Shown: in pieces, positions 6,910 to 42,668 of the stretch
Numbering within the stretch: the first letter of the stretch is position 1
Layout of the letters: each line of letters opens with the position of its first letter
Virus record (IMG/VR): IMGVR_UViG_3300031998_000007
Strand: one strand, 5' to 3'
Source: a virus
Taxonomy: Duplodnaviria; Heunggongvirae; Uroviricota; Caudoviricetes
DNA length: 64,000 bases
Program-made: the position numbers and the translations under genes
Notes under the pieces: model-generated
Seen by the model: only the letters and a program-made list of their open reading frames with translations
Told to the model about the DNA's origin: nothing
Database searches by the model: none

Positions 6910-7911
6910 ATGGATACAAGGAATTTCTTCGCCGGAATGGGCAAGCTCCAGGCTCTTACGCAGAACCCGGCCGACAAGCAGAAGCTCGAAGCAATCGCCG
7001 GCATCGTTGGCGGCGCATTGTTCGAGGGAGTTCAGCCGAAGACCGGTGCCGGCAAGTTCATGAACTATCTCGGCATGTGCGAAAGCCAGGCCAAGACACC
7101 GCAAGATGTCGCATCAATCAACCTCGTCCGCGGAAGGGTGTTGATCGAAGCAGCGACCGAAGGTGACGGCGGAGAAGGCCGCACCGACGTGAACGAAATC
7201 ATCAAGAAGCCGGTCGAGCAGATTGTCGCGATCCTCAACGCCAACAAGGACAACGCGAAGCTCATCATCAACACCGCGTTCAAGGACTACCAGGCCGGCG
7301 TAAAGCAGGCTGCTGCCGACGCAAAGAAGGCCGAAAAGGAACAGAAGGTAGCCGCGCAGAACGAAGCCGACCAGAAGACCATCGACGCCAACAAGTCCCG
7401 CACCGACAAGGTGAAGGACATCAAGGAACGCCAGGCCACCGAAGCCAAGCCGGCAGTTGACGAAAACAAGATCAAGGCCGACGCTGTCGCCGAAATCACC
7501 GAAAAGTACAAGAAGGCACGCCCGGAACTCTTCGGCGAAGACGGCAAGCCGAAGGACGAAAGCACAGCCAAGGTCATCGAAGACCGCGCATCCCAGTTGG
7601 CTGCCAAGAAGATCAAGGAAGCCGGAAGCAACAAGCCCGAAGTTGACGAAGACATCGCCGCCCTCGACAAGGCCGAAATCGCCAAGAACACTGTCGGCAT
7701 CAAGGACCGTGCAAAGTCCCTCGCTGCCCATACCCGCCAGGCCCTCCGCCAGAACAAGGGTCTCGGTGGCAAGCTCGCAGGCGTGTTCCGCGGTGCAAAG
7801 CAGGCTCTCCTGGGTGAAGGCATCGACCAGGAAACCGTCGCCAAGCTCAGCGGCCCGGAAGCCATTGCCCTCTGCGAAGCCGCAGGCATCAAGGTCCCGG
7901 CGCTCATCTAA
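6910..7911 (+). CDS. K/A/E-rich putative internal head protein with cleavable leaders
   Basis: ALFE|G and VLIE|A near the N-terminus, LGE|G and LCE|A near the C-terminus; helical charged core; late motif upstream. Confidence 0.55.
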   Translation: MDTRNFFAGMGKLQALTQNPADKQKLEAIAGIVGGALFEGVQPKTGAGKFMNYLGMCESQAKTPQDVASINLVRGRVLIEAATEGDGGEGRTDVNEIIKKPVEQIVAILNANKDNAKLIINTAFKDYQAGVKQAAADAKKAEKEQKVAAQNEADQKTIDANKSRTDKVKDIKERQATEAKPAVDENKIKADAVAEITEKYKKARPELFGEDGKPKDESTAKVIEDRASQLAAKKIKEAGSNKPEVDEDIAALDKAEIAKNTVGIKDRAKSLAAHTRQALRQNKGLGGKLAGVFRGAKQALLGEGIDQETVAKLSGPEAIALCEAAGIKVPALI

Positions 7912-7931
7912 CAGGACAATTCCCACTTACG

Positions 7932-7959
7932 AAGCCGACCGAAACACGGTCGGCTTTTT
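7932..7959 (+). terminator. Intrinsic terminator
   Basis: AAGCCGACCG-aaaca-CGGTCGGCTT followed by TTT. Confidence 0.8.
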
Positions 7960-7980
7960 CGTTTGCCCCGGAGCCCGGAC

Positions 7981-7989
7981 TATAAACTA
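7981..7989 (+). promoter_or_regulatory. Putative late promoter TATAAACTA
   Basis: Exact motif between a terminator and the ATG at 8025. Confidence 0.75.
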
Positions 7990-8024
7990 TGGACGAAACT
8001 TTTATTGGCTAGGCAGATACCCGT

Positions 8025-11000
8025 ATGGCAGAGAAACAAGTCCGAATCAAAGATTTACCGCCTTGGAGGGCCGGGTATGTACCGGGCGCCTATGTGGCCC
8101 TGGACAGCCAAATGCAGATTACCGGTAAGGTCACTCTCGACGAGTTCCGCTCATGGATGGGCGGTGGTGGGGGTGTTGACCCGTCCGAACTGAACAAGAA
8201 GGCCGACAAGGTCGGAACTGGCCACAACGGCAAGATGGCGATGTTTGACGCCTACGGCAACCTCGCGGACTCCGGCATCAACAAGTCCGGTGTCCAGACT
8301 GCCGTAAGCTGGGCCCACCAGCACGGAAACCAGAACATCCTTAGCCAAATCACGGCTCCATATCGGACGAACGACGCACAGAAACTCAACGGCATCGAAG
8401 ATGGCGCAAACAAGTATGTCCACCCGACAGCAGATCCGTTCGGTCTCGGCCTTTACAAGGTGGCCCGTGACAACAAGGGGCACATTTCCGCGTATGAAGC
8501 CGTTACCGCGGCGGACCTCGATGCAATCCCCGGTGTAGAAATCACCGACACTACCTACGAAGCAGCCGACGGCATAAAGCTGGACACGTCCGGCAACAAG
8601 AACACCTTCAAGCACACGAACCACGTTTCCCCGGGTCAGACCGGCACGGGAACGGCCACCGAAGGTCCCACAGTCGAAGTTCCCTATGTCAAGTATGACG
8701 ACAACGGCCACATTACCGAAGCCGGGACGCGCACCCATACGGTGACAGGAACCCTCCCGACATCGCAGGCAGCAGACAACATCCTCTCCGCAGACGAGAA
8801 CAACAACGTCTCCTGGCAACAGATTGTCGCCCATGTATTCGGCGAGGCCCCCGACGCGGTATCGCTCTGGCTCTCCTACAAGGGCAAGGAATTTGCCGCA
8901 CGCCGCGCATACGGCGACGAAAGCGGACGCAACATCAAGGAAGCTATCGACGACCGCCCGACACTGGACGCGATGAACACGGCAATCGAACTTGCCCTCG
9001 CGAACTACGGCGGGTTCAAGATTGTCTCCCTCACCAGCACCGAACCGAAGGTTCCCGATGTCCAGGAACCGTCCCCGCGCTTCATCTACCTTACAAAGGA
9101 TTCCCAGTCCACAAAGAAGGACAAATACACGGAATGGATCTGGTCCATCCCGGATGGCAGCGCACAGGGTTCATGGGAAGTCATCGGCGAGACATCCGTT
9201 GACCTTTCCAACTACATCCAGAAGCTCACCAACGCGACTACCGGCAACCTCGTGAAGGTCAAGGCAGACGGCTCCCTCGAAGATGCCGGCGCAAAGGTAA
9301 GCGACTTCGCCACCGCGGCGCAGGGCGCAAAGGCCGACACCGCGGTCCAGGATGTCAGGGTAAACAACCAGACGGTCGTTGGCAACGACAAGATAGCAAA
9401 CATCACAGTCCCGGTCGCCGGAAACAGCGCACCGCTAATGAACGGCGTTTCCTCCGTAGGCACATCCTCCGCGTTCTCGCGCGAGGACCACGTCCACCCG
9501 TCCGACACTACCAAGCAGAACAACCTCCCGACATCCGGGACCCCGTCCGACACATACGCAATCAACATTACCGGTTCCGCACAGACGGCAGAGAACGTCC
9601 ATGACGGCACGCTCTCCATCCAGGTAGGAACCGCTGCGGCGCAGACCTTCTCCGCCAACCAGGCCGACAACGACCCGGTGAGCGTCAGTGTCCCGATGGG
9701 CAAGAGCACCAACGGCGGGGCGACCACATACCAGGAAGGCCTCATCGCGCCAGCCGACTACCAGAAGCTCGACAATCTCCAGGTCAACGACGGCAAGCTG
9801 AAAGTCAAGCTCGGTAGCGCCCAGTCGGCATCCAACCTTTTCAGCGCCAACCAGAGTTCCGACGCAACGCTCGAAGTACCGCTCGCCTCCCATGTGACCG
9901 AGAACGACTCGACCACATATACGGAAGGCCTCATGACCGGCGAGGACAAGGAAAAGCTCGACGAGTTGAAGAACTTCTCCAAGGTCACCGTCGATACGGA
10001 CGGAACCCCGGCGGGCGAAGTTGACATCGAGCCGTCCGACGAAAAGTCCACGCTCCGCCTGAAAGCAGGCAACAACGTCGTCCTTACCGCGGACCCGAAC
10101 ACGAACGAGGTGGAAATCTCGGCACAGGGCGGCTCCCAGGCAGTCCCGGTCTCCGTCAGCGCAGGCCGCGGCGTTTCCGTGACCGAATACACCGACTACA
10201 CCGGCGCAAAGGACTTCGAAGTTTCTCTGGACCATGCAATCGGCTATCTCGGGGGTGACGCCGGCGTCATCAACGTCTCCGCCTCCCCGACCAACCTCAT
10301 CACCAGTTCGATGGTGATAAAGCTGGATTCCGCCAACGACAGGTTCCTGTTTGCCGAAGATCCGAACACCCACCAGATGTGCGTGTTCGCCCTCAAGACC
10401 ATCCCGAACTCCGACCCGCAGCTGAACGACGGCGTTGACGGCGTTGACCTCTTCGAGCTCACCTATGATGTCCGCCTTGAACGTACACGGAGCACGGGCT
10501 TCTACGGGTTCGGCGACATTTCCGTCCAGCGCGTCCTCTCCGGCAGCTCCAACGAAGGGCTGGAACTTCACCACATGTCATACCCGGCGGAAGTCAGCAT
10601 GTGCTCGCTTACGGGCACAGTTACCATCTCCAACAACTCCGGTAAGGACTTCACCATCAACGGCAAGGTGTACCATGCCTACATGCTCACCTATGCCGGC
10701 GACGTCTCGGCCACGGGCGACGTCATCCTTCTGTTCCCGCGCATCGCGGTGAAGGAATACATGTCCGGCACCGCAGAATACGACAGCTCCCAGAGCACCC
10801 AGTACAACAGCGGTATCGCCACGACGGTCGATGCAAGCAACCACAACATCAACGTGAACATTGGCAAGGGTCTTGAAGCCGACGGCAACAACAACCTCCA
10901 AGTCAAGGTGAAGGCTGGCGGTGGCATCATCATCGACCCGACTGACGGCGTGTCAGTCGTCCTTGCAGGAACCGCGCAGGAAGCGGTCGAAATCGCCAAG

Positions 11001-11672: not shown

Positions 11673-11681
11673 CGAGGAACC

Positions 11682-12023
11682 ATGCTTACTACTTACAACA
11701 GACAGGAACTCATGCAGAACCAGTCCGGCCCCAACGGCACGGTCCTCTACGAAAGCCACGGAAAGACCGGACTGGAATGGAACCAGTATATCGGCCAAGT
11801 CATCATCAACGACTTCATCAAGCAGCTCCCGCAGTATGAAGGTCTCGACTTCGACCCATACATCAAGGACGTAGTCCCCTACATCCAGCTCGGGCTGTTC
11901 GATTCTGCCATCGCTAAAATCAACCAGATTTCAATTTCGGGCCTGGAAAAAATCCAGGAATGGCTGTTAAAGTCCCTCCAAGAAGGAGAAGACCGCCAAC
12001 TTCCCAGTAAGGAGGAAGCATAA
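11682..12023 (+). CDS. Small fibre-associated protein (possible assembly chaperone)
   Basis: Directly follows the fibre gene with a GAGG RBS; resembles the N-terminal domain of 14873..16309. Confidence 0.5.
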   Translation: MLTTYNRQELMQNQSGPNGTVLYESHGKTGLEWNQYIGQVIINDFIKQLPQYEGLDFDPYIKDVVPYIQLGLFDSAIAKINQISISGLEKIQEWLLKSLQEGEDRQLPSKEEA

Positions 12024-13273: not shown

Positions 13274-13274
13274 C

Positions 13275-14870: not shown

Positions 14871-14872
14871 CC

Positions 14873-16332: not shown

Positions 16333-16341
16333 TATAAACTA
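16333..16341 (+). promoter_or_regulatory. Putative late promoter TATAAACTA
   Basis: Exact motif about 29 nt before the ATG at 16371; overlaps the hairpin AACTAGGGG...CCCCTAGTT. Confidence 0.75.
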
Positions 16342-16370: not shown

Positions 16371-16646
16371 ATGGAAGAGATAGACAAGCTCGTAGAAGCA
16401 GCCCGCAGTGACTGTGACGACAATGTCCTCGTAGATGCGTTCGGCAAGGCCGCATACGCCATCTTCGGCGAACCGCTCATAGAAACAGTGGTATATCGCG
16501 AAGGCCACAAGAACTCGAAGGGTGAGGATGCCCCGTGGGTCATCGAATCCCACGAGACGGGCGAAATCCTGAGCAGCCATCCGAGCAAGGAAGCTGCCGA
16601 CGAGCATCTCGTTCAGATGCGCAAGTTTAAACACATGAAAGGATAA
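16371..16646 (+). CDS. Small putative internal head protein
   Basis: N-terminal leader resembles 23828..24220 (DDN[V/I]L...AF.K.A.AIF). Confidence 0.6.
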   Translation: MEEIDKLVEAARSDCDDNVLVDAFGKAAYAIFGEPLIETVVYREGHKNSKGEDAPWVIESHETGEILSSHPSKEAADEHLVQMRKFKHMKG

Positions 16647-16649: not shown

Positions 16650-17519
16650 ATGGGACGTCAACTCGTCATTTCAGTCGCCGGTGGCGGTGCCCTGGGCATC
16701 GGCCCCCTGGCCTTCCTCTGCAAGGTAGAACAGCTCACCGGGAAGAAAATCCCCGACATCGCACAGGCATACGCCGGCACGTCAACCGGCGCAATCATCG
16801 CTGCCGGTTTCGCGGAAGGCTATTCCGCCCATGACCTGTACGACCTCTACCGCAACAACCTGAAAAAGATTTTCACGAAGTATGGCGTAATCCAGCGCCT
16901 TAAACCGAAGTGTCCGACCTACAACAACTCCAACCTCAAGAAGCTCTTGCAGGAGAAGTTCGCCGGCAAAATCGGGACCTGGAAGAAACCGGTCTATATC
17001 CCGTCCACCTGCATGAACGGCTCTTCTGTTGAAAAGGTGTGGGATCTTGGTGACAAAGATGTTGATAAGTGGTTTGCAGTGTTGACAAGCACGGCAGCCC
17101 CGACCTACTTCGATTGCGTCTACGACAGCGACAAGAACTGCTACATCGACGGTGGCATGTGGAAGAACTCCCCGGTCGATGTCCTCAACGCGGGCCTCCT
17201 CAAATCCGGCTGGTCCAACTTCAAGGTCCTCGACCTCGAAACCGGCATGGACACCCCGAACACCGACAGCGGCAACAAGACCCTCGTCGGCTGGGCGGAA
17301 TACATCTTCTCCGACTGGGTGGCAAGGTCCAGCAAGTCCGGGGAATACGAAGTCAAGTCCATCATCGGGGAAAAGAACGTCCTCGCAGTGCGCCCGTATG
17401 TCCAGAAGAAGCCGAAAATGGACGACATCTCCAGCAAGAACCTCGACAATGTCACGCAAATCTGGGAAGAATACTTCTACTCCAAGAAGGACGAAATCTC
17501 CAAATGGCTGAACCGCTAG
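16650..17519 (+). CDS. Patatin-like phospholipase
   Basis: GGGALG oxyanion loop, GTSTG nucleophile, AAPTYF and DGG catalytic Asp. Confidence 0.9.
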   Translation: MGRQLVISVAGGGALGIGPLAFLCKVEQLTGKKIPDIAQAYAGTSTGAIIAAGFAEGYSAHDLYDLYRNNLKKIFTKYGVIQRLKPKCPTYNNSNLKKLLQEKFAGKIGTWKKPVYIPSTCMNGSSVEKVWDLGDKDVDKWFAVLTSTAAPTYFDCVYDSDKNCYIDGGMWKNSPVDVLNAGLLKSGWSNFKVLDLETGMDTPNTDSGNKTLVGWAEYIFSDWVARSSKSGEYEVKSIIGEKNVLAVRPYVQKKPKMDDISSKNLDNVTQIWEEYFYSKKDEISKWLNR

Positions 17520-18199
17520 ACATCGTAGTCTCACTGACGACCTGGTCCGGGCGGATCAACTGCCCGGAGCTTCCCCGCGTCCTCGCCCGATGGCTCACGC
17601 AGAAGACCCCGTTCAGGTACAAGGTCGTCCTGGTCCTGTCCACCGACGAGTTCGGCAGGGGCTACCGTCTCCCGGACGCGATTTCGGTCATGGCGCAGAA
17701 CTCCCCGAAGTTCGAGATACTCTGGACCAAGGAGAATACCCGCGCCCTGAAAAAGCTCGATCCGACGATGAAGAAATACCCGGACATCCCGGTCATCACG
17801 ACAGACGACGATGTCGTAGTGTCCCCGTTCACGGTGGACTACCTCACGCGGCTCCACAAGGCATACCCGAAAACAATCCTCGGCCACTGGCTGCAGTCCA
17901 CAGCCGGCGTGAAGCTGGTCGCGGGCCTGCGCCTGTTCCCGCCACACTCCCTCGCGGACTGGCCCACGGAATGGTTCTCCAAATACTTCAAGATGCTCCA
18001 CGACGACGAGTGGAACGGTCTCCGCGCAATGGCAAAGGGGACCCCGCTTGCCAGGATCCCCAAGAACGTAATCGAAAACATTGACTACGGCGACGAAAAG
18101 ATTGCTTTCAGGAACGAATACAGCAGGTTCCGTTACGGCGCCGCGCTGAAAGAGTTCATGCGGGAGCACCCTGAACTCGGACTGCGCCTCCCCGTTTGA
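17504..18199 (+). CDS. GT-A glycosyltransferase-like protein
   Basis: IVVSLTTW.GRI, FEILW, KKL.P, VITTDDDV, HDD; start overlaps the patatin end. Confidence 0.7.
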   Translation: MAEPLDIVVSLTTWSGRINCPELPRVLARWLTQKTPFRYKVVLVLSTDEFGRGYRLPDAISVMAQNSPKFEILWTKENTRALKKLDPTMKKYPDIPVITTDDDVVVSPFTVDYLTRLHKAYPKTILGHWLQSTAGVKLVAGLRLFPPHSLADWPTEWFSKYFKMLHDDEWNGLRAMAKGTPLARIPKNVIENIDYGDEKIAFRNEYSRFRYGAALKEFMREHPELGLRLPV

Positions 18200-18793: not shown

Positions 18794-18807
18794 AAATATA
18801 CATTATT
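18794..18807 (-). promoter_or_regulatory. Putative class-II promoter AATAATGTATATTT
   Basis: 5 nt upstream of the ATG at 18788; overlaps the stop codon of the MFS gene. Confidence 0.55.
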
Positions 18808-19948
18808 TTCTCACGTTGGCTTCCATCACGGTGAACGCGATGAAGTAAAGGACGGCAAGAACGGCATAGAGCGCGGTCCCGGACAGGTTATTCGCGAGCA
18901 GCGGCCCGAAAATTCCGCCCACGCTCCACCCGGTAAGGGTCATGGAATGGACGCGGGAAGCGTTCTCGATGCCGAAGCGCTTCGCCAACAGGCTCGGAAG
19001 GCCGGAGAAATTACCGCCGTATGCGGCCTCCACCATGAGTATGCCGAGCACAGTCAACGGGACGCTCCCGGTAATGCAGAACAGGGAACCGAGAATACCG
19101 AAACTGCAAATGAAATGATACGACGCCTTGCGGCCTATGCGGTCGGAAAGCGCAGAGAAGCCTAGCCTACCGCCGGAGTTAGCCAATGCGGTGACTGACA
19201 GGACGGCGCCTATCGCGGCAATGCCGAGGCCGGAAAACAGCCCCTTCTCCTGCGAGATAATCGCCAAGCCGCAGCTGATGTTGGTCATGAACATGAACCA
19301 GATGGCCCACCATTCCCTCGACCGCAGCAAATAGGAATAACGGAAGCAGTCGAGGTTCTTCGGGATTTCTATACTCGGGTATTTCCTGATAAACAGGCTG
19401 GACAGCACCATCACCACGGCATATACCGCACCAAGCGCGTAGAACACGCCATACAGCGGCAGCGTGGCAAGCAGCCACTCGATAACCGGGGATGCGACGA
19501 ACTTGGCAAGTCCAAACCCGGTAATGGCCAGCCCGGACGCAAGCCCCTTGTGGTCGGCGAAAAACTTCATCAAGCTCTTTACCGGCGTAACATAGCCTAT
19601 GCCCGTCCCGGCGCCTATGAACATCGTCGCGATGTAGAAGGCCGCCACGGATTCGATAAGGACAGACGTCCCGAGCATCAGGAAGCCCGTGATGAAGATT
19701 ATCGTGGACAACCACGCGCCGAAACGCGGGTTCTTCTCGATGGCCGATCCGAAAATCGCGGCGCACATACCGAGGAAGAAGATGATGAGGGTAAACCCTA
19801 CGCTCACCGCACCCTTCGACAAGTCGAAAGTCTTCATGAGCTCGGGGGCGAACTGGCTCCAGCAGTAAACGGAGCCAATGCAGGTCGTCAGCGCCACGCC
19901 GGGTATGGCGCAGTTAAGCCAGCGGTTCGGCATATTTTCCTGGATCAT
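18803..19948 (-). CDS. MFS transporter, OFA (oxalate:formate antiporter-like) family
   Basis: About 12 hydrophobic segments; CIGSVYCWS, GIGY.TPV, F.DHKGLASGLAITGFG, N..GRL.F..LSDRIGRK, YGG.F. Confidence 0.85.
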   Translation of the reverse strand: MIQENMPNRWLNCAIPGVALTTCIGSVYCWSQFAPELMKTFDLSKGAVSVGFTLIIFFLGMCAAIFGSAIEKNPRFGAWLSTIIFITGFLMLGTSVLIESVAAFYIATMFIGAGTGIGYVTPVKSLMKFFADHKGLASGLAITGFGLAKFVASPVIEWLLATLPLYGVFYALGAVYAVVMVLSSLFIRKYPSIEIPKNLDCFRYSYLLRSREWWAIWFMFMTNISCGLAIISQEKGLFSGLGIAAIGAVLSVTALANSGGRLGFSALSDRIGRKASYHFICSFGILGSLFCITGSVPLTVLGILMVEAAYGGNFSGLPSLLAKRFGIENASRVHSMTLTGWSVGGIFGPLLANNLSGTALYAVLAVLYFIAFTVMEANVRK

Positions 19949-21825
19949 TTCAACCCCGCAATCGGCTTCTCGTTTTCGAGGCCGAACGAATTGTTCACAC
20001 GCTCGGTAGCCTGGGCAATCTGTTCAAGCCACCCACCCTTGTTACCGCCGACCTTCTCGGTGGAGAAGGCGTCGACGCGGTTGTCAACGAACGCAGCCGC
20101 ACGGCGAGGAATCTTCTCCCATTCCCTCGCGGCCTTCGGGTTCTTCTCGACCACGCCCTGGACCGCCTGCCGGAGCTTCATGTAGCGTGCCGGAAGGGTG
20201 CTGCTGAAGAACTTGCCAATGGCCATCATCACGTTGCCGTCCATCGCCGGGATTACCTTCTCGTTCTTGGACGACTTCATCGCCTCCTTGAACTCGTTGA
20301 CCGTCCGGGTCACATAGTTCTCGTTGGCGAACCCGCTTGCGATGTCATGGGAATTGATCTGCTTCCTGACGTTGGAATCGTTGCTGAACGGGGAACCGCT
20401 GAACAGTCTCTCGACATGCTTGACGGCCTCGTCGCGGGTGCGGACCCACTGGCCGAAATACCATGCCTCGAACCCGCGCATGATTGCTGCCGGAGTGACC
20501 GACTTCATGCCGTTGTTCTGTTCCTTCTTCACATCGCCGGCGGTAAGATACTGGGTGATAATCGCGCCGAGCTCCGCGTCGTTGTGGTTATACTGCTCCG
20601 GCGTTACGCGGTTCATCGCAGGCGGAACCTTGCCCATCACGGCGCGGCATGCGTCCACGTCGGCACCGGAAATGCTATCAACCGAGCCAGAAATTTCCGA
20701 CGGGTTCGCATCGGCCATCACGGTCATGTATTCCCGGATAGCGTCATCGGTGTAGATGTCCCCATCGACCTGCGTATCGGCCTTGCGTGCCTGATGGCAG
20801 TCCTGGCCGAGCATGCGGTTCTTGTCCTGGTTATCTGAAAGGAGGAACTTCCAGAGCTGCTTCGCCCAGTCGTTCTCATCTCCGTTCTCGCCCTGCCCGT
20901 CAGTCTTGCCGGTACCGTTCCCGGCGCCCGTCAGGTGGGCAGTCACATACTTGCCGACAGTGGCATCATCCCCGGACATCTCGTCGGAAGAAAGCTCGTT
21001 GACCGCAGCCACGACCTTCTGGAGATGGGCGAGAATAGCCTTCTTGTCTTCATCCGTGACGGTTGCCGGATCGACAGCAACGCCGTCCTTCTGCGCCGTC
21101 TCCTGGATGAAGCGGTCGATGTCACGCTCGCCATAGAAGTCAGGCTGCATTTCCTGCGCACCGTCGTTCCTGCCGTTCTTGGCATCCGCACCGAGACCGC
21201 TATTCTTGGTCGCATCATCAGAAGTAAGATACGCCCACACGCGGTCGGGCAGAGACGCAGGCTGCGCCTGCTGTTGCTGCTTCTGCGGGGCCGGCTTCGG
21301 ACGCTTGCCGGAGATAAAGTCCCCGATGGCCTTCTTGAACTTCACGTTCAGGTTCCCCTTCGCGGAATCACCGCGGATAACGCTGACGATGGCCGACTGC
21401 AAGGAGGAATCCTTGTCCTGCTCCATGAGATCGTTGATACTCGCGGAAAGGATGGAAGCCATCAGCTTGCGCGGGCCGATAAACACCTCGCCGTCCTTGA
21501 CTTCAAGGGCCTTCGAGTTCGTCGGAGAGCCCTTCTCGTGCTCGTTGTCCGCATGGATGGTAACTCCGCCAACATCGACCGTCACGTCGAGCTTGCCGGA
21601 CCTGCGTTTCGCGGCAAGGTAGCCCCAGCCGTCGTCGGAATTCACAAAGTCGGCGAGCCAGTCGCACACCGCCTGGGACATCGCCCCGGCGTCTGGAGCC
21701 GGATCTGCCGGGGTTCCGACATCGGCCTCCACGAAGACAGGCCTTTCCCCCGCTTCGAGCAGGATGCTGTCCATTTCGAGCAGCGCACTGCCCATGTCAT
21801 AATCATATCCGTTATAGGCGCCCAT
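19945..21825 (-). CDS. Hypothetical protein with a duplicated domain; candidate internal head protein
   Basis: N-terminal LLE, LLE|A and FVE|A motifs; two ~110-aa repeats; start chosen at MGAYNG, which has a purine-rich RBS. Confidence 0.6.
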   Translation of the reverse strand: MGAYNGYDYDMGSALLEMDSILLEAGERPVFVEADVGTPADPAPDAGAMSQAVCDWLADFVNSDDGWGYLAAKRRSGKLDVTVDVGGVTIHADNEHEKGSPTNSKALEVKDGEVFIGPRKLMASILSASINDLMEQDKDSSLQSAIVSVIRGDSAKGNLNVKFKKAIGDFISGKRPKPAPQKQQQQAQPASLPDRVWAYLTSDDATKNSGLGADAKNGRNDGAQEMQPDFYGERDIDRFIQETAQKDGVAVDPATVTDEDKKAILAHLQKVVAAVNELSSDEMSGDDATVGKYVTAHLTGAGNGTGKTDGQGENGDENDWAKQLWKFLLSDNQDKNRMLGQDCHQARKADTQVDGDIYTDDAIREYMTVMADANPSEISGSVDSISGADVDACRAVMGKVPPAMNRVTPEQYNHNDAELGAIITQYLTAGDVKKEQNNGMKSVTPAAIMRGFEAWYFGQWVRTRDEAVKHVERLFSGSPFSNDSNVRKQINSHDIASGFANENYVTRTVNEFKEAMKSSKNEKVIPAMDGNVMMAIGKFFSSTLPARYMKLRQAVQGVVEKNPKAAREWEKIPRRAAAFVDNRVDAFSTEKVGGNKGGWLEQIAQATERVNNSFGLENEKPIAGLK

Positions 21826-21848: not shown

Positions 21849-22133
21849 TTAGCAAAATGGTATCAGCGCGTTTTCGTGGCAGAACTTCCTGTCGCGCTGG
21901 ACATACAGGCCAAGTTCCTTGAGCTTGCCGACAAGTCCCTTGAACGGAACCTGCACCGGCGACGACCCGTCCACGGAGACCGTCGCAGTCTCCTGTTTCG
22001 GATCATATTCAATCGTTGCACGGAGCTTCCCATCCCGTTCATACTTGGAACGGGTGAAGTCTCCCGGGCACCATCCCTGGAGGATGCCCTCGATTGTCTT
22101 GAATTTCCATAATGCGAAACGGTCAGGCGACAT
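21849..22133 (-). CDS. Hypothetical protein
   Basis: Fills the gap in a minus-strand operon with 2-nt spacing from the upstream gene. Confidence 0.55.
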   Translation of the reverse strand: MSPDRFALWKFKTIEGILQGWCPGDFTRSKYERDGKLRATIEYDPKQETATVSVDGSSPVQVPFKGLVGKLKELGLYVQRDRKFCHENALIPFC

Positions 22134-23291: not shown

Positions 23292-23825
23292 CTACTCCGA
23301 TGTCGATGAGGACGAGGATGCCGCGCTGCTGGAATCCCCGCCAACGTAGGTACTCACGGGAACGTTATACCCGTCGCGGCCCGAGAACGGCCCGACCTTG
23401 TTCGGATATACCTGGCTCGCGTTCGCCAATTCCATCGGCTGCTTGATGTGCGACTGTGCGCGTTCCATCATCTTCCTGATCGGAATCGACGTCAGGTGCG
23501 TAGGCTTCTTGAACTTCGGGTGTTCCCAGTTCTTCGGGTCAATCTGCCCGCTCTGGTCCTTCATCGACGGCGCGGGCTGGTTGGGATTAGTATAAGACTT
23601 TCCCGTGCAGTCGTTCCCGTCAACCGCCCCCGACGGAGTGAGGATGTTGAGCATGTCGGAATACCCCCAGACCATGGCGTTCGCACGCATGGAGTCCGGG
23701 ACCCTCAACGGGGGAGGGGCACAGTTTTCAAGATACGTCTGGTATCTCCGGCAAACGTTGTCGTAGCATTCCTCACCGAGCTTGCCGCGCACCGTTTCGA
23801 GGAATGTCTCGAAACTCGACGGCAT
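23292..23825 (-). CDS. Hypothetical protein, candidate internal head protein
   Basis: FLET...YLEN leader and Ser-rich tail; in the late operon starting at 24245. Confidence 0.6.
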   Translation of the reverse strand: MPSSFETFLETVRGKLGEECYDNVCRRYQTYLENCAPPPLRVPDSMRANAMVWGYSDMLNILTPSGAVDGNDCTGKSYTNPNQPAPSMKDQSGQIDPKNWEHPKFKKPTHLTSIPIRKMMERAQSHIKQPMELANASQVYPNKVGPFSGRDGYNVPVSTYVGGDSSSAASSSSSTSE

Positions 23826-23827: not shown

Positions 23828-24220
23828 CTAGGCCTGCTGTTGCTGTTCGTTCTTCTCGGTAGTCACCGAGTTGGTGATGTCGGCAGCCGTCTTGGCGGCA
23901 TCGGCGACAGCCTTGTCGGCATCGGCGAGCTTCGCCTCGTTCTCGGCGCGTTCAGAAATTTCCGTCGACTTGTCAACGGCTTCCTTCGCCTCGGCAGCGG
24001 CATCCTGTGTTGCACCAAGGTTGGTCACCGCAGTAGCGATTTCCTTCGCCTTGTCACCGCTCACATCGGCCATCTCGGTAGGGAGCGACGTAGTTTCGGT
24101 CCCCTCGGCGCCAACACCCTCGAAAATAGCCCTTGCGCCCTTCTCGAAAGCCTCGGCAAGGATATTGTCATCGGCAATGTCGGCCTTGGTGGCCGCAATC
24201 ATCTGGTCCAATTCGTTCAT
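23828..24220 (-). CDS. Small acidic A/E-rich putative internal head protein
   Basis: Leader MNELDQMI...ARAIFE|G. Confidence 0.65.
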   Translation of the reverse strand: MNELDQMIAATKADIADDNILAEAFEKGARAIFEGVGAEGTETTSLPTEMADVSGDKAKEIATAVTNLGATQDAAAEAKEAVDKSTEISERAENEAKLADADKAVADAAKTAADITNSVTTEKNEQQQQA

Positions 24221-24244: not shown

Positions 24245-24275
24245 TAGTTTATAGCCGGAGCGCCGCTATAAACTA
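24245..24275. promoter_or_regulatory. Divergent pair of TATAAACTA late promoters (24245-24253 minus, 24267-24275 plus)
   Basis: Two exact inverted copies between divergent genes. Confidence 0.8.
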
Positions 24276-24298: not shown

Positions 24299-24937
24299 AT
24301 GAATGAACTTGCACCGTTCTTCAAAGACATCCGGCAGGATTGCCCCGATGTCCCCCTCGTAGAAGCGACAATCAAGGCCGCAATGGCAATCTTCGAAGCC
24401 GAAGGTGACGGCAGCGTCCCGGCGACGGAAACAGATGCCCCGGCAGACACCACAGCAGATCCGGCAACGGAAACCGCCGATGCCCCCGCGACCGAACCCG
24501 CCTCAGACGACCCCAATGCGGTCGATACAAGCCTACCGGCGGACGATGCCGGTCTCGGCGGCATGGACGCCGGGGCAGACCTTGGCGGTGGCGACATTTC
24601 CACGGACGACGCGGCTGCACCAGACGATACCGCAGCGCAGGACACGGTTGACGCACCCCCTCCGACCGGAGACGAAACGCCTGGCGCAGTAAACCAGGAA
24701 CAGGTCCCGGCAATGCCCACGGAAGAAATCGTCACCAAGTTCGTGCAGTCGGGTGCAGTCCGCGAAGCCCAGGACGAGATGGTCCAGACAAAGGACACCG
24801 ACAATTTCGAGTTTGCCAAGAAAATCGCCGCACGCCTAGCCAAATTCTGCAAGGACAACCAGATCACCACGCTCGGCGTAAAGGAAGGCGCCCGGATAGC
24901 ACAGGCGCTCGCCAAGAAATACGGGGAAAAGAAGTAA
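24299..24937 (+). CDS. Acidic low-complexity putative internal head/core protein
   Basis: Leader MNELAPFF...AMAIFE|A; D/A/P/T-rich body; the ATG at 24275 lies within the promoter, so 24299 is preferred. Confidence 0.65.
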   Translation: MNELAPFFKDIRQDCPDVPLVEATIKAAMAIFEAEGDGSVPATETDAPADTTADPATETADAPATEPASDDPNAVDTSLPADDAGLGGMDAGADLGGGDISTDDAAAPDDTAAQDTVDAPPPTGDETPGAVNQEQVPAMPTEEIVTKFVQSGAVREAQDEMVQTKDTDNFEFAKKIAARLAKFCKDNQITTLGVKEGARIAQALAKKYGEKK

Positions 24938-24941: not shown

Positions 24942-25604
24942 ATGGAAAACATAAAGGGGATAATCGCGCTGACTTCGTGGAAAGCCCGCATCAAGGGAGT
25001 GGGCCTCACGATTTTCAGCATACTGAAACACTGCAAGGGCTTCAAGGTAGTCCTCACCCTGTCCGACGAGGAGTTCCCGCGGAAAGAAGCCGAGCTACCG
25101 GCTGACCTGCAAGCGCTCGCGAAGACCGGTGTCGTCCAGATACTCTGGGTCCACAAGAACTACAAGCCCTACAAGAAAATCATCTTCGCAATGAAGGCCT
25201 ACCCGGACCTCCCCATCATAAGCGCGGATGACGACTGCCTATACAAATATGACTACGCGGGGGAACTCTACAACAAGTGGAAACAAAACCCCGGCTGTAT
25301 CATCGCGCAGACCGTAGGCGACGGGATCCCCTGGGGATATGCGACCCTGCATCCGCCCGGAGCATACAACCCCTACATATTCGCGGCAATCGCTGACTAC
25401 TGCCTGTCTCGTCAGTCATACCACGACGATCTGCTCTACCACCTGTATGCGAAGCGGAAGGGCATCAAGATTCTCTCGATGTTCCATGAAGTCCCGCACG
25501 TCGTCCAGTTCCACAACGGCGCATGCGGTCTCGTCAACGAGCGCCTGAAACACCACAACGACTGGCGGGTAATGAACGAGGCGTTCGCGAAATTCTTCGG
25601 CTAG
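24942..25604 (+). CDS. GT-A glycosyltransferase-like protein (paralogue of 17504..18199)
   Basis: IIALTSWKARI, VQILW, YKK, IISADDDC, HDD. Confidence 0.7.
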   Translation: MENIKGIIALTSWKARIKGVGLTIFSILKHCKGFKVVLTLSDEEFPRKEAELPADLQALAKTGVVQILWVHKNYKPYKKIIFAMKAYPDLPIISADDDCLYKYDYAGELYNKWKQNPGCIIAQTVGDGIPWGYATLHPPGAYNPYIFAAIADYCLSRQSYHDDLLYHLYAKRKGIKILSMFHEVPHVVQFHNGACGLVNERLKHHNDWRVMNEAFAKFFG

Positions 25605-26578
25605 TCCTCGAACCACTCGCCGCGTTCACACTTGCTTGGCGACCATCCTATCGGGTGGTTGCCTTTTACGTTGCAGTGACGGCAGAACGGATGCGGCAGC
25701 CGGGAAAGAACAAGGACCTCGTCGGGATGTTCAACCTCGCGCAAGTCTATCCGGTCATAGCATGTCGCTTGCAAGTTCAACCCGAACGCGGCATTGGGAT
25801 ATTGAAGATATGAGACCGGACTGCACAGATACAGGTAGTTTCCGATTAGGGTAGGGCAGTTGGCCATGTAGCAGTCGGTCTTCCCGGTGGCCGGATATTT
25901 CGGGTCGACGCTCTTCAAGTAAGAAGTGAACTCCGGCGGATTGGTCCCGAACTGAACAAAGGGGAAGTGATGGGTCTCGCTGTCCTTGCGGGCAATCTCG
26001 ATTACGCGCCGGTTGACCTCCCCGTAACAGCTATACCCGAGGGCCGTGCCCGTCTGGGGCAGCAAATCCCTGAACACCCCTCGCCACCTGCCATACAGCA
26101 GCATGTTGGAGACCACATAACGTTCACGATCCGGGAAGATTTCCCGGGTGTCCCGGATAATTGCCTCCAGGCCACGGTGCAACAGCGGCTCCCCGCCAAT
26201 GAGGAATACCGTAAACACGATGTCCCCGCATGCCCGTTTCAGCAGTTCCATCGAGGCAGCAATGTCCTCGCGGTCAAGAAACGGGGCGGAAGCCGCTATG
26301 GGGGCGAAATGCGAACATGACTTGCATGCAAGGTTGCACCGGTCGGTTATCGGGACATCAACCTTGATACGCGGCCACGTTTCAATCTGCGCCGGGACTG
26401 TCGGAACCTTGCCGACGGACCGCCAAAGCGCACCGCGAATTTCGGAAACCAATCTGACCGCGCCCGGAAAGTTCTCTTCCAACGCATCCAGCAGACCATA
26501 AAGAACCCCGGCGGTTTCCGGGGCATTGACTAGGCGAACATATCCTTCCACATCGAAACGCATCATTCCTCTATACAT
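25601..26578 (-). CDS. Radical SAM protein with a Cys-rich C-terminal extension
   Basis: CNLACKSCSH (CxxxCxxC), GGEPLLH; C-terminal C...C...C and FCRHC. Confidence 0.9.
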   Translation of the reverse strand: MYRGMMRFDVEGYVRLVNAPETAGVLYGLLDALEENFPGAVRLVSEIRGALWRSVGKVPTVPAQIETWPRIKVDVPITDRCNLACKSCSHFAPIAASAPFLDREDIAASMELLKRACGDIVFTVFLIGGEPLLHRGLEAIIRDTREIFPDRERYVVSNMLLYGRWRGVFRDLLPQTGTALGYSCYGEVNRRVIEIARKDSETHHFPFVQFGTNPPEFTSYLKSVDPKYPATGKTDCYMANCPTLIGNYLYLCSPVSYLQYPNAAFGLNLQATCYDRIDLREVEHPDEVLVLSRLPHPFCRHCNVKGNHPIGWSPSKCERGEWFED

Positions 26579-35813: not shown

Positions 35814-35829
35814 TCCGCGGGGGCGGAAA

Positions 35830-36924: not shown

Positions 36925-36927
36925 GGG

Positions 36928-37464
36928 TTACCCCTTGTTTTCTTCCTTGGCAGGTTCTGCCGCTTCGGCTTCCTGCGGAGGATCCTTGATGAGAGGCTTG
37001 AGGAGGTTCCAGTAATACCAGTTCTGCTGTTCGTTGGTCCCAGCAAATTCCGGCACGCGTTCAAGTTCGATTGTGCGGAGGTCGAGCTCGATTTCCTCGT
37101 CGCAGAACTCGTTGCGGTTCTTGTCAATGATGACCTCGTTCTCGTAAGCCTCCTTGCACTCTTCGCGAAGGTCAAGGATCTTGCGTTCGAGCTCCTCACG
37201 GGCTTCCGGCGTTGCCGTCTGGAAGTCAGCCGGGGTATTGAACCCAAGTTCCTTCTGGATAGCGAAACGGCGCTGTTCGGCTTCAAGGAAAGCCTTGTCG
37301 GGCGGGAAGGCTTCCACCGTGTTCTTGCGTTCTTCGCCGGTGACCTTCAAGTTGTGGGTCACGAAATAGCGGAACCATGCGCTGACCGGGGCCTTGAATA
37401 CCTGGTCGGCATGTTCGAGCATGAGGTTGAGGTTGATTGCGTATGCGCGTTTTACCTTTTTCAT
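36928..37464 (-). CDS. Hypothetical charged helical protein (possible fibre chaperone)
   Basis: GAGG RBS before MKKVKR; follows a fibre-like gene. Confidence 0.6.
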   Translation of the reverse strand: MKKVKRAYAINLNLMLEHADQVFKAPVSAWFRYFVTHNLKVTGEERKNTVEAFPPDKAFLEAEQRRFAIQKELGFNTPADFQTATPEAREELERKILDLREECKEAYENEVIIDKNRNEFCDEEIELDLRTIELERVPEFAGTNEQQNWYYWNLLKPLIKDPPQEAEAAEPAKEENKG

Positions 37465-37518
37465 CGGTTTCCTCGTTTGAAACGTTTCATGCGGGAAAAC
37501 TAGGTTTTCCCACACGGA

Positions 37519-40320: not shown

Positions 40321-40323
40321 TGC

Positions 40324-42066
40324 TTAACTCCTGGGGGTGCCATGCACCGTGAAGAACTGGATTTTGTTTTGTGCGGAACGCTCGGAAACCTGCGTCGCCG
40401 TGTACAATGACTGGTTGAACGTATCGAATATGCTAAAGTCCACGGGAAGACTCTCTACCGCGCAGTCAACTCCGCGGACAGCGCCTGGGTTCACCGTGCC
40501 GTCAACCAAATTTTTCATGAAGTTGTGGGTGTGGTTCTTCGGCGCATACTCGTCACCGGAGTCATCGTTCTGGCATCCGTTTACGCCCGCGGTCATGCGG
40601 TCCATGCGCTGCTTCATGATGGCCATGTCGAGGCCCACATCAGTGATGGCCTCCGCCTGGCTTGCCGTAGCGATGAGCTGGTTCTCGTACCAGGTTATCG
40701 CATTGTCCTCATACATGTTGTAGAAGACGGAAGCGTCGCGGATAACGGACCCGGTGTCCTTGTCGCCCAAGTTGAGGTCCACGTTTACCTTGTAGGTGCT
40801 GGTCTCGCCAGAACCTTCACGGAGATACACCGTCGTATCGAGGTCAACCACGGCAAACAGAATCGGCTCGGCATTGCCGTCGATTTCGAACTGCACACGG
40901 AAATCCTCACAACCGCTGCGATTTGTCGCATTGTTTTCGGACTTGTAGAAACGGTGGACAGTCATCTTCGCAGCATAGATGCCGATACGGTTGAACTTGA
41001 TGCTGCTTTCCTTGGTCTGGAACAGGTCGGCCCCGCCGATACTGGTAATTCCACTTGTACCCGACTGAGTAATAGCGCGAGTGGCAACCGTATTGTAAAT
41101 GTCATCGAGTGACATGTTGATGCTGAAACGGAGCGTGCTGGCAATCTTCTTGCCAGGAAGGATGGAGGATGCCCCTTCCTTCGCGTTCACCACCTTGTAA
41201 TGGCTAATCGGGAAGAGCCTCGTCACCTTCGCCATGTTGCGACAGGACGGTTCGTAATCGACCAGGAACCCCTCGGAACTTGCCGGGGCATGATAACGGT
41301 TGTAGTTGGAAATCGACTTGAACTTCCAGTATTGTTCACACAAGCAGTTGTAGTCCGGTTCCAACGGCTGGGTCGGATCGCCGTTCAGCCCATCCTGGGT
41401 GTAGGTCTTGTTGGCGGACAGCCACTGGCGGGTGTCCACGCCATTCACGGCAGCGTTGAACGGGTCACCGCCTTCCGGGACAGTGGCAGTCTTGCCGATA
41501 TAGGCGCGGGTGTCCGTAGTCACGGCAGGCAAATCGCCATTCTTCGGGTAATCCGCGAAATCTCCCATGTCCTCAGCGGTCGCGGGCGGATTGTTGAACG
41601 GTTCGGCACCATCGGTAAAGAACAGCGGGGCGGGAAGCGGAAGTCCCGTCAAGTCACCGTCCGCACCAACGCCGCGGAAAACGCACGCGCCGGAAACGTC
41701 GGAGGCGGAACTGTCAGTAGTCCCGCGGAACATGACGAGGTTGTTGTTCCCGTTCTTGTCGAGAACATAACGGAAGCGGGACATCAGGTTGGACGTGTAC
41801 ATCGCCACGCCGCCAAGTTCCGCGGCGGACGTGCCCTGCGCATAGCCGCCCGCAACCATCGAACCCTGCCACAGGTTGTAGATGTGGTCGCCCTTCTTCG
41901 TGAGCGAAGTCATGGTGGCTTTCAGCTCATCGTCCTTGCCCTCCATGCGTTCTTCTGCCGGGACAAAGGCGAGACCGTAATAGCCAATCCAATAGGTATC
42001 ACCGCCGGCCTGCGGCACGGTGTTAAGGAGGTCCAAGCCTGCTTTCGTGATTACGGTACTAGCCAT
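40324..42066 (-). CDS. Baseplate/fibre-attachment-like structural protein
   Basis: N-terminal TVITKAGLDLL, FNRIGIYA and ILFAV resemble tail-collar fibre N-domains; YAPKNHTH. Confidence 0.55.
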   Translation of the reverse strand: MASTVITKAGLDLLNTVPQAGGDTYWIGYYGLAFVPAEERMEGKDDELKATMTSLTKKGDHIYNLWQGSMVAGGYAQGTSAAELGGVAMYTSNLMSRFRYVLDKNGNNNLVMFRGTTDSSASDVSGACVFRGVGADGDLTGLPLPAPLFFTDGAEPFNNPPATAEDMGDFADYPKNGDLPAVTTDTRAYIGKTATVPEGGDPFNAAVNGVDTRQWLSANKTYTQDGLNGDPTQPLEPDYNCLCEQYWKFKSISNYNRYHAPASSEGFLVDYEPSCRNMAKVTRLFPISHYKVVNAKEGASSILPGKKIASTLRFSINMSLDDIYNTVATRAITQSGTSGITSIGGADLFQTKESSIKFNRIGIYAAKMTVHRFYKSENNATNRSGCEDFRVQFEIDGNAEPILFAVVDLDTTVYLREGSGETSTYKVNVDLNLGDKDTGSVIRDASVFYNMYEDNAITWYENQLIATASQAEAITDVGLDMAIMKQRMDRMTAGVNGCQNDDSGDEYAPKNHTHNFMKNLVDGTVNPGAVRGVDCAVESLPVDFSIFDTFNQSLYTATQVSERSAQNKIQFFTVHGTPRS

Positions 42067-42092
42067 CTGGGCTGCCCAATTAAACTCGTCCA

Positions 42093-42139
42093 TAGTTTAT
42101 AAGTCGCCGTCCGCCAAAGGCAACCCGTTTTATAAACTA
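42093..42139. promoter_or_regulatory. Divergent pair of TATAAACTA late promoters (42093-42101 minus, 42131-42139 plus)
   Basis: Two exact copies, each about 25 nt from its downstream ATG. Confidence 0.8.
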
Positions 42140-42164
42140 TCAAGGAAATACCCAGAGTTTCAGC

Positions 42165-42668
42165 ATGCAGTCACAACTTTCCGTCGCAATCTCGGACTTC
42201 AAGAACTCCGTAATCAAGCTCGCGTCGCACTTCCCAAGCGAACAGCTGGCTTTCAACGCCATCCTGGAAGCGGCCGGCGGTGCACCCAAGTGGTCCCTCC
42301 CGGACGACAAACGCTACATCAGCAAGGACAAGCGGAAGCTCCTCGCAATCCAGTGGTCGAACAACGGGGAAAACATCAGCGACGAAGACTACGAGGCCGG
42401 GTACGACTGCTATGCAATCGGCGACCTCTACAATCTCCCGGAAGGGTTCGATGTCAGCACCCTCCCGAAGGGCAACTACGAGCTCGACAAGTGGGACTAC
42501 AGCGGCCCGGAGCCGGTGTACAGGGGGCTGGACCTCGAAGCCAACCTCACGCAGATGCTCTACAAGTCCAGCGAACCTCAGCCGTCCGAGGCCAAGGTCG
42601 TCGAGGACATCATGGGAACCCCGCAGGCACAGTTTGCCGCGGAATGGGATCCGCTCCCCTGCGAATAG
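42165..42668 (+). CDS. Acidic hypothetical protein, candidate internal head protein
   Basis: Leader ending NAILE|A at residue ~35; late motif upstream. Confidence 0.6.
   Translation: MQSQLSVAISDFKNSVIKLASHFPSEQLAFNAILEAAGGAPKWSLPDDKRYISKDKRKLLAIQWSNNGENISDEDYEAGYDCYAIGDLYNLPEGFDVSTLPKGNYELDKWDYSGPEPVYRGLDLEANLTQMLYKSSEPQPSEAKVVEDIMGTPQAQFAAEWDPLPCE

Follow-up and report, generated by a model that had tools for sequence, protein, structure and literature searches.

Several proteins encoded by an uncultured, distant T4-like giant phage begin with a leader that ends in a hydrophobic residue, any residue and Glu, and are unrelated in the sequence behind it. This raises the question whether the leaders form a common, cleavable address for the phage head. 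We analysed the first 64 kb of the 213-kb viral contig (this whole stretch is called the window), for which a preliminary description had proposed such an address; its coordinates and N-terminal sequences all proved correct.

Three proteins share a homologous N-terminal leader

The proteins encoded at 16371+, 23828- and 24299+ carry homologous N-terminal leaders of 33-38 residues (family A):

16371..16484, + strand: leader of the 91-aa protein (residues 1-38); family A, two predicted helices
16485..16646, + strand: cargo of the 91-aa protein; small beta-beta-beta-alpha domain, G-H-K-N-S-K-G-E family, pLDDT 86-91
24119..24220, - strand: leader of the 130-aa protein (residues 1-34); family A, ending A-I-F-E then Gly, orthologues found
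23828..24118, - strand: cargo of the 130-aa protein; acidic, Ala/Glu/Lys-rich, probably helical
24299..24397, + strand: leader of the 212-aa protein (residues 1-33); family A, ending A-I-F-E then Ala
24398..24937, + strand: cargo of the 212-aa protein; acidic Pro/Thr/Asp/Ala-rich linker of ~105 residues, then a basic helical C-terminal domain

Local alignment of these core leaders against 2000 shuffles gave z values of 14.3, 10.7 and 6.4, with no shuffle scoring as high, and the pairs that they form are the best N-terminal similarities across the 189 proteins predicted from the contig. An HMM built from the three leaders found no further member in a six-frame scan, the next match having E = 0.89. 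In the leader of the 91-aa protein Gly takes the place of the family Glu, and a second site, L-I-E followed by Thr, lies 5 residues further on; the AF2 model of this protein displays helices at residues 2-13 and 19-32 and a folded cargo from residue 38. The quoted start of 24299 holds, because the alternative ATG at 24275 overlaps a promoter motif. Conservation among close orthologues is lower in the leader (0.81-0.87) than in the C-terminal domain of the cargo (0.95-0.97); for the 212-aa protein it is 0.80 in the linker and 0.97 in the C-terminal domain. In one orthologue cluster (P0014), Ala replaces the leader Glu. The leaders had also been called amphipathic, which is not exceptional here, as their helical moments lie at percentiles 41-94 of all N-termini. 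Their net charge ranges from 0 to -7 and they have no hydrophobic run or core. A Sec/Tat signal peptide does not fit, as neither a positive start nor a hydrophobic core is present.

Two further leaders share the ending and the promoter

The leaders at 6910+ and 42165+ had been placed in the same family. They could not be aligned with the core family in the shuffle test (p 0.37-0.95), and the proposed single family with a significant alignment thus holds for 16371, 23828 and 24299, the others having only architecture and ending in common with them:

6910..7026, + strand: candidate leader of the 333-aa protein (residues 1-39); ending A-L-F-E then Gly
7027..7911, + strand: cargo of the 333-aa protein; highly charged, Lys/Glu/Ala-rich
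42165..42269, + strand: leader of the 167-aa protein (residues 1-35); ending A-I-L-E then Ala
42270..42668, + strand: cargo of the 167-aa protein; acidic globular alpha/beta domain, pLDDT about 90
contig 165258-165737, - strand: extra leader case outside the window, absent from the preliminary description; pattern ending

What 6910+ and 42165+ share with family A is the ending A-[ILV]-[FL]-E-[GA], its distance from the N terminus (Glu at residue 35-39) and a TATAAACTA promoter of their own. All leaders in the window have Ile, Leu or Phe two positions ahead of the Glu. The AF2 model of the 167-aa protein places helices at residues 4-22 and 24-36, followed by a coil at 37-48, so that two N-terminal helices are predicted for both the 16371 and the 42165 protein; the predicted cut falls at the edge of the folded cargo in the former, and at the end of helix 2, before the coil that precedes the cargo, in the latter.

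The A-[ILV]-[FL]-E-[GA] pattern has 7 occurrences only in 66,052 predicted residues, five of them starting at residues 30-36 of small proteins whose gene is the first behind TATAAACTA; the pattern was partly drawn from the examples of the preliminary description, so that only its strict A-I-F-E form and the case outside the window are independent of it. In that additional case the leader is followed by an acidic Pro/Thr linker resembling that of the 24299 protein. The looser [LI]-x-E has a frequency of 0.9 per 100 residues. With a small residue behind it ([LI]-x-E-[GAST]) it was found 11 times in the N-termini of promoter-first genes, when compared to ~3 expected, and this enrichment drops to 5 against ~3 once the three homologous leaders are left out.

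The TATAAACTA motif is present in 13 copies in the window (0.02 expected) and 27 in the contig. Every copy sits between genes and, where an ORF follows, 22-39 nt ahead of its start codon; one copy (188394-) has no ORF behind it. Each of the five leader genes named previously is indeed the first behind such a motif:

6872..6880, + strand: TATAAACTA motif, 29 nt ahead of the 6910 gene
16333..16341, + strand: TATAAACTA promoter-like motif, 29 nt ahead of the 16371 gene
24245..24253, - strand: TATAAACTA motif, 24 nt ahead of the 23828-24220 gene; head of an operon reaching down to ~18156
24267..24275, + strand: TATAAACTA motif, 23 nt ahead of the 24299 start, overlapping the alternative ATG 24275
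42131..42139, + strand: TATAAACTA motif, 25 nt ahead of the 42165 gene

Because the capsid and portal genes have no TATAAACTA motif of their own, it is at most a putative late promoter.

Two weaker cases had been listed as well:

19945..21825, - strand: 626-aa protein with a 24-residue candidate leader; ending I-L-L-E then Ala, acidic linker next
23292..23825, - strand: 177-aa protein, not supported as a leader protein

The former lies within the operon of the 24253(-) promoter; its true start is the ATG at 21825, behind a GAGGAAGG ribosome site, and it is plausible as a shorter, 24-residue version with an acidic linker. The latter was discarded: it has no promoter of its own, Asn follows the Glu, and no similarity to the leaders was detected.

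Behind the leader the sequences are unrelated between the proteins. The cargos range from 53 to 590 residues and are partly folded domains; four are clearly acidic and that of 6910 is balanced in charge. The 6910 cargo contains more candidate sites near residues 80 and 303-323, and searches returned neither a family nor relatives for it. No Pfam or PHROG family matched the 23828 cargo, and no PDB fold matched the model of the 42165 cargo, which has 10 relatives among 1.84 billion representatives.

The contig encodes a T4-type head module with a prohead protease

The following head features were identified:

42981..44477, - strand: gp23-like major capsid protein (Pfam Gp23, 9.6e-59)
44325-44477, - strand: predicted 51-residue capsid propeptide, ending L-T-E then Gly
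49616-51253, - strand: acidic protein of 545 aa, low in complexity; C-terminal half with 7 hydrophobic-hydrophobic-Glu-Ser/Gly/Ala sites
contig 136002-136748, outside the window: gp21/S77-type prohead protease (Peptidase_S77 PF03420, 8.8e-15; phrog_207 head maturation protease, 9.2e-27)

A gp20-like portal gene (Portal_T4, 1.9e-64) is also in the window, and a gp22-like scaffold gene adjoins the protease gene outside it. The L-T-E/G boundary ascribed to the capsid propeptide is real: it is kept as [LM]-x-E followed by G, A or S in three related genomes (G001-G003), and across the four genomes it is of the same site type as the leader ends. Repeated sites had further been claimed for a scaffold, with the ORF left unnamed; the best fit is the 49616-51253(-) protein with its 7 sites, which has the top site enrichment in the proteome (Poisson p 5.7e-5) and is likely a head core or scaffold-like protein degraded by the protease. 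In an unbiased proteome scan the site type was most enriched in this acidic head-region protein, in the protease itself and in the scaffold-like gene. Processing of the leaders by a T4-type protease is consistent with these data, if indirectly, since the contig encodes an S77/gp21-like protease and the capsid propeptide has the same kind of site.

Leaders and cargos are exchanged among relatives

The idea that a modular leader is joined to different cargo domains is supported by comparative evidence separate from that on which it was first based. The 16371 cargo has 26 metagenomic homologues, 12 of which begin exactly at the residue after the predicted cut; 9 carry a short extension (5-15 residues) ending in hydrophobic-hydrophobic-Glu at the cut boundary, and one has a 96-residue extension with the same kind of end. 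Again, the homologue in G001 has no long leader and a 7-residue version instead. Homologues of the 42165 cargo display the same leader, one of three other leaders of 32-36 residues, or none, and this cargo is also found deep inside proteins of 271 and 527 aa, both of which start with such a leader.

In related phages we identified a second leader family (B) of ~37 residues on at least six unrelated cargos; the BLAST alignments end at residue ~38, i.e. homology stops at the Glu, which is Asp in one protein (P0054). A cargo swap was observed at a syntenic locus, where the flanking genes are 53-98% identical and two genes align over residues 1-43 only. The leader families could not be linked statistically by hmmsearch or hhalign, and these unrelated families have the same hydrophobic-hydrophobic-Glu plus small residue at the homology boundary.

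A probable capsid-targeting propeptide and its alternatives

Altogether, the leaders are probably N-terminal propeptides that work like a capsid targeting sequence. In this view a tag with two helices, 33-39 residues long (but 24 for one protein), would bring small, lineage-specific proteins, expressed from TATAAACTA promoters, into the core of the assembling prohead, where the gp21/S77-type protease would cut after the Glu of A-hydrophobic-hydrophobic-Glu, before Gly, Ala, Ser or Thr, and release the cargo inside the head. The tag would behave as a cassette that is retained in evolution as its cargos change, and the lineages within this group of phages would use different tag sequences with the same architecture. 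Binding to the core, cleavage and the fate of the cargo, which may be ejected with the DNA or play a scaffold-like role, are the steps that we infer.

The leader could instead be an uncleaved two-helix module for docking or oligomerisation of paralogous or recombinant late proteins, whose partner need not be the prohead. The AF2 models, with helix hairpin, flexible linker and domain, fit this architecture, lineage-specific leader families are what a co-evolving interface would give, and the P0014 and P0054 variants lack the Glu. We nevertheless regard it as rather unlikely, given that unrelated leader families end in one and the same Glu site, that a site of this type delimits the capsid propeptide and that the 5-15-residue versions in the 16371 family are too small for a domain, yet keep the site. 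Somewhat less probable still is a cleaved propeptide without address role, which keeps the protein inactive or assembly-competent until the cut, entry being due to the cargo or to a part as minor scaffold or core component. It draws on the acidic, low-complexity, scaffold-like character of the 23828, 24299 and contig 165258 proteins, and on the multiple sites of the 49616 protein and the scaffold-like gene, both probably degraded; retention of the leader during a cargo swap is hard to explain if the cargo is the address, and in proteins of several domains it is the very N-terminus that carries the leader.

Recent gene duplication or chance, with the common tripeptide ending a coincidence, is disfavoured and very improbable: the frequency of hydrophobic-x-Glu and the lack of alignment of 6910 and 42165 with the core family would fit it, but the shuffle statistics of the core leaders, the concentration by position of the five-residue ending, an independent second family with the same properties in relatives and the unrelated post-leader parts argue against it. 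We give least credence to leader peptides of ribosomally synthesised and post-translationally modified products, or secretion signals, read by radical-SAM or glycosyltransferase-like neighbours. A Radical_SAM match (1.6e-5) at 25601-26563 does adjoin the 24299 locus, and paralogous glycosyltransferase-like genes (17504-18199 and 24942-25604) lie near two leader genes; the radical-SAM gene is however found at one locus only, the 6910, 42165 and contig 165258 genes have no such neighbours, the cargos, given their size and partial folding, are not short core peptides, and the leaders are net acidic or neutral without a hydrophobic core.

To return to the targeting propeptide, a broader version of it is possible, though we hold it with more doubt than confidence. 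Uncultured rumen-type T4-like megaphages may carry interchangeable two-helix address cassettes of ~35 residues that co-evolve with a lineage-specific prohead-core receptor and load hypervariable, mostly acidic proteins, possibly DNA mimics or anti-defence effectors, to be injected with the genome; the unlinked families would be alternative addresses with one docking principle, and the Glu boundary a joint for recombination and processing. If the leaders are addresses, one could list from genomes alone which proteins an uncultured giant phage packages and possibly injects, the mark of head cargo being a small promoter-first gene, a two-helix N-terminus of ~35 residues, hydrophobic-hydrophobic-Glu and a small residue. 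T4 targeting would then reach, as a longer tag with structure, phages that are very distantly related to T4 and have genomes of 350-440 kb, and cargo swaps behind a kept tag would be natural experiments on the renewal of the injected protein set. The tags might also be of use in loading foreign proteins into large capsids.

Comparison with known systems

[quoted passage not shown] The T4 internal proteins are diverse and have only a conserved targeting sequence in common (PMC3012670, PMC9026906); the tag is 10-19 residues long (PMC9026906), and the T-even internal proteins are described as basic in a review (PMC9026906). Like the CTS, the leaders are N-terminal tags on otherwise unrelated, fast-evolving proteins, they end at the Glu site of a gp21-type prohead protease (here by sequence only), and the tag persists at a locus where the cargo is replaced. 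The genome likewise has a gp21/S77 homologue, a gp23-like capsid and a gp20-like portal, and the 5-15-residue versions on the 16371 cargo homologues resemble the T4 tag in length and style. Unlike the CTS, the leaders have 33-39 residues (24 once) and two predicted helices, against 10-19 residues, and at least three unlinked leader families occur in one phage group; their cargos are mostly acidic, not basic, and their genes lie apart from one another, each behind a promoter of its own.

In phiKZ, 201phi2-1 and SPN3US, inner-head and ejection proteins carry long N-terminal propeptides (PMC5694885, PMC10052503), which outsize the T4 tag and for which a role in directing proteins into the prohead is inferred (PMC5694885); most have 80-160 residues and an Ala/Ser/Gly-x-Glu motif (PMC5694885). 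The likeness lies in a giant phage with a related prohead protease, which here would also cut after Glu, and in a common N-terminal propeptide sequence, as in the SPN3US paralogues gp53 and gp54. In contrast, the leaders described here have ~35 residues with Ile, Leu or Phe at the motif position, as in T4, and unlike phiKZ this phage is T4-like by its capsid and portal sequences; a modularity of leader and cargo as sharp as here is not described for phiKZ or SPN3US in PMC5694885 and PMC10052503. A third case is P1 DarB, an anti-restriction protein delivered to the host, which has an N-terminal packaging signal of 30 residues (PMC9024508). The leaders resemble it as N-terminal segments of about 30 residues, and that of P1 suffices for capsid entry (PMC9024508). 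Unlike the leaders, it is not described in the passages of PMC9024508 used here as common to a cargo family or as removed by a gp21-type protease, and there is no sequence relation between the two. The principle itself is known, from the T4 CTS (PMC9026906) and from giant phages with their long propeptides (PMC5694885); the leaders are most likely a new, longer variation on the T4 capsid-targeting principle and not a new principle.

Phage identity and head genes

The window covers bases 1-64000 of an IMG/VR contig of 213,375 bp (CheckV completeness 56%), on which the following head genes were recognized:

42981-44477 (-), gp23-like major capsid protein (Pfam Gp23, 9.6e-59)
44664-46307 (-), gp20-like portal (1.9e-64)
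contig 136002-136748, outside the window, gp21-type prohead protease (PF03420, 8.8e-15; phrog_207, 9.2e-27)
contig 136763-137608, directly after the protease gene, outside the window, scaffold-like gene for an acidic helical protein of 281 aa

None of the cultured phages is close, the capsid reaching ~30% identity at best; megablast of the 16-26 kb region against them gave no DNA match, and tblastn with the protein of leader gene 16371+ gave none either. Capsid genes ~70% identical were found at 38 IMG/VR loci, the longest of the contigs measuring 355 kb, and one close relative sits on a 438.8-kb contig. By its head-gene matches, the ~30% capsid identity and the large-contig relatives, the source is a very distant T4-like giant phage. 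The gene order in three related genomes (G001-G003) is portal, capsid, 56-aa protein, protease and scaffold; here a module comprising the 56-aa protein, a 143-aa protein, protease and scaffold (contig 135300-137608, locus L001) lies ~90 kb from portal and capsid.

A homologous leader on three unrelated proteins

The preliminary description, whose quoted sequences and coordinates are all correct, proposed that several otherwise unrelated proteins share an N-terminal leader. This is borne out for 16371+ (91 aa), 23828- (130 aa) and 24299+ (212 aa), which have a homologous N-terminus of 33-38 residues (family A), but not for 6910+ (333 aa) and 42165+ (167 aa), which do not align with those three. 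The family A pair alignments beat 2000 of 2000 shuffles (z = 14.3, 10.7 and 6.4) and are the best N-terminal matches among 189 predicted proteins; the likeness stops at residue 32-34, with unrelated sequence beyond. The HMM check suggested at the outset was run with the three leaders; it recovered zero additional members in the six frames of the contig and zero matches in the genomes of three relatives, each scanned whole (355, 348 and 308 kb). The leaders had also been called amphipathic; their helical amphipathicity is no higher than background. Readings of the leaders as signal peptides or as modified-peptide leaders were both rejected.

Shared ending, outlying and weak members

Both 6910+ and 42165+ end their leaders as family A does, with Ala, Ile/Leu, Phe/Leu and Glu followed by Gly/Ala, the Glu being residue 35-39. 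The first residue past the predicted cut would be 39 in 16371+, 35 in 23828-, 34 in 24299+, 40 in 6910+ and 36 in 42165+. The five-residue ending has 7 occurrences in all 66,052 predicted residues; in 5 of the 7 it starts at residues 30-36, and those five are small proteins encoded by the first gene behind the promoter-like motif TATAAACTA. One of the five is a fresh case from outside the window, the 159-aa product of contig 165258-165737 (-); its ending is the strict A-I-F-E then Ala, and the acidic Pro/Thr linker behind it resembles that of 24299+. Because the pattern was broadened using the examples of the preliminary description, only the strict form, for which ~0.14 chance occurrences are expected in the whole proteome (a rough estimate from typical residue frequencies), and the contig 165258-165737 case are independent. 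The loose pattern [LI]-x-E-[GAST] was found 11 times versus ~3 expected in the N-termini of promoter-first genes; without the three homologous leaders the count is 5 versus ~3 expected, and the enrichment fails to hold.

As for the two weak members put forward, 23292- was rejected, having neither homologous leader, ending nor own promoter, while 19945- does have a leader-like N-terminus, but a shorter one of 24 residues. A TTG start at 21855, which would give 19945- a 34-residue leader, was rejected; the gene starts at the ATG at 21825, where there is a strong ribosome site. Besides, contig 105037-105666 (+) (L093:1037-1666) encodes a Lys-rich basic 209-aa protein, closer in look to a classical T4 internal protein, whose 18-residue N-terminus ends with A-I-L-E then Gly; its homologues in G001-G003 are without this ending.

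Modularity of leader and cargo

The strongest result of the analysis is modularity. As had been proposed, the leader sits on differing cargos (the remainder of each protein). Cargo homologues occur without leaders or with other ones, and in relatives cargos are swapped at a syntenic locus. The 16371+ cargo belongs to a small family of 26 metagenomic sequences. Twelve of these have their start Met exactly one residue past the predicted cut, nine carry a 5-15-residue extension with hydrophobic-hydrophobic-Glu at the same boundary, in one the extension runs to 96 residues with the same kind of ending, and three are without the Glu; the G001 homologue has a 7-residue version, the long leader being absent. 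For the 42165+ cargo, 10 relatives were found in 1.84 billion representatives searched; they have the leader type of 42165+ itself, one of two different leaders of 32-36 residues, or no leader at all. Two longer proteins, of 271 and 527 aa, hold the domain deep inside and begin with a 32-36-residue leader that ends in Ala, Ile/Leu, Leu, Glu, then Ala.

When the N-termini of G001 and G003 were compared all against all, a second leader family emerged (family B, ~37 residues), with two invariant Cys and the ending Lys/Ala-Gly-Phe-x-Ala/Leu-aromatic/Met-Cys/Leu-Glu, then Ser/Ala. Its profile retrieved 14 clusters from the database; their cargos, 113-427 aa in length, fall into at least 6 unrelated types, and pairwise BLAST alignments end at about residue 38. 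At a locus syntenic between G001 and G003, with flanking-gene identities of 98, 70, 69 and 53%, the swapped genes align over residues 1-43 only; the cargos that follow, 211 and 333 aa long, are unrelated. HMM and hhalign comparisons among family A, family B and the leaders of 42165+ homologues gave no significant link, and we treat the leaders as several families that share one architecture, not as one homologous superfamily.

The family B cysteines form a Cys-x4-Cys pair between two predicted helices (e.g. L045:15135-15269 (-) and L044:1468-1602 (-)), for which a metal or disulfide role is possible; among the three window leaders, one Cys is present at the corresponding position in two. Large paralogue families of a different kind occur in G001 (280117-283059, 48955, 52181) and G002 (319475-328278, 175968-177820), with 7 and 11 copies, a strongly conserved N-terminus containing F-E-T-N-S-S-S-x-H and variable remainders.

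Promoter motif

The promoter motif noted ahead of leader genes is real, TATAAACTA being present 13 times in the window versus 0.02 expected. The contig holds 27 copies (window 411-59014; contig up to 188394), every one intergenic and, wherever an ORF follows, 22-39 nt from the start codon. The motif heads the protease-containing operon and otherwise lies mostly upstream of large structural-looking genes. It is similar to TATAAATA, the late promoter of T4; the label 'late' stays putative, because the capsid and portal genes are without TATAAACTA. The stretch that precedes the capsid gene (44478-44663) holds a terminator-like hairpin and an upstream sequence of another kind. G001 and G003 use a variant, TATAAACTG, of the motif.

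The Glu site in other head genes

In agreement with the earlier proposal, the capsid propeptide carries the signature, its boundary being Leu-Thr-Glu then Gly; in three relatives the boundary reads Leu-Ile-Glu/Ala, Met-Leu-Glu/Ser and Leu-Ala-Glu/Ala, each abutting the conserved mature N-terminus. All proteins were scanned for hydrophobic-hydrophobic-Glu with Ser, Gly or Ala as the next residue. An acidic 545-aa protein, 49616-51253 (-), ranked top (7 sites, p 5.7e-5), followed by the promoter-first gene at contig 162996, the protease (three sites, close to both its ends), 16371+ together with the promoter-first gene at contig 142709, and the scaffold-like gene. The top-ranking product is probably a head core protein degraded by the protease; it is low-complexity, repeats hydrophobic-hydrophobic-Glu-Ser-Ala 7-9 times in its C-terminal half, and its homologues in relatives have a promoter motif of their own. 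By the capsid boundaries and the scan, the leader ending is the same type of site as in expected head-protease substrates. In T4, phiKZ and SPN3US alike, the protease cuts after Glu (PMC5694885).

Predicted structures and gene neighbourhood

In the AlphaFold model of 16371+ (91 aa), two helices (2-13 and 19-32) are followed by a short linker and then by a small, confidently modelled domain that starts at residue 38, so that the predicted cut falls on the edge of the fold. The 167-aa protein (42165+; mean pLDDT 83.5) is modelled with helices at 4-22 and 24-36 and coil from 37 to 48; its globular domain begins at residue 49. Foldseek searches of PDB with both models returned nothing under E 0.2, hence no solved-fold match for either cargo, and the ESM Atlas gave no usable match. 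Pfam and PHROGs assigned no family to any leader protein or family B cargo, and IMG/VR scans with the 23828- and 6910+ proteins found zero relatives. Genes in or next to the leader-gene operons encode a patatin-like phospholipase (16650-17519), an MFS transporter (18803-19948) and a radical-SAM enzyme (25601-26563), and a leader gene is close to each of two paralogous glycosyltransferase-like genes (17504-18199 and 24942-25604).

Comparison with known systems

On balance we favour, with some reserve, the reading of the leaders as a longer, two-helix variant of the T4 capsid-targeting system. The leader would bind the prohead scaffolding core and the head protease would cut it off, steps that, like what the cargos do, we infer. 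Our confidence is lowered because most cargos here are acidic, whereas a review describes the internal proteins of T-even phages as basic (PMC9026906); because the Glu is replaced by Ala in one orthologue cluster and by Asp in one family B protein; because close orthologues differ more in their leaders than in their cargo C-domains; and because 6910+ is tied in by the short motif, position and promoter only.

In the literature searched, we found no description of these particular leader families with the length and the helix-turn-helix form predicted for them, of several leader families coexisting in one phage group, or of clear cargo-swap evidence in uncultured megaphages. The principle of leader-directed head loading is already known. 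The T4 targeting sequence is bound to the scaffolding core and taken off by gp21 (PMC3012670, PMC9026906), and the longer propeptides of the phiKZ-group giant phages are thought to act likewise (PMC5694885). T4 internal proteins are diverse and fast-changing, with only the conserved N-terminal targeting sequence in common (PMC3012670, PMC9026906), and the arrangement in this phage group, unrelated cargos behind a conserved N-terminal sequence, matches it.
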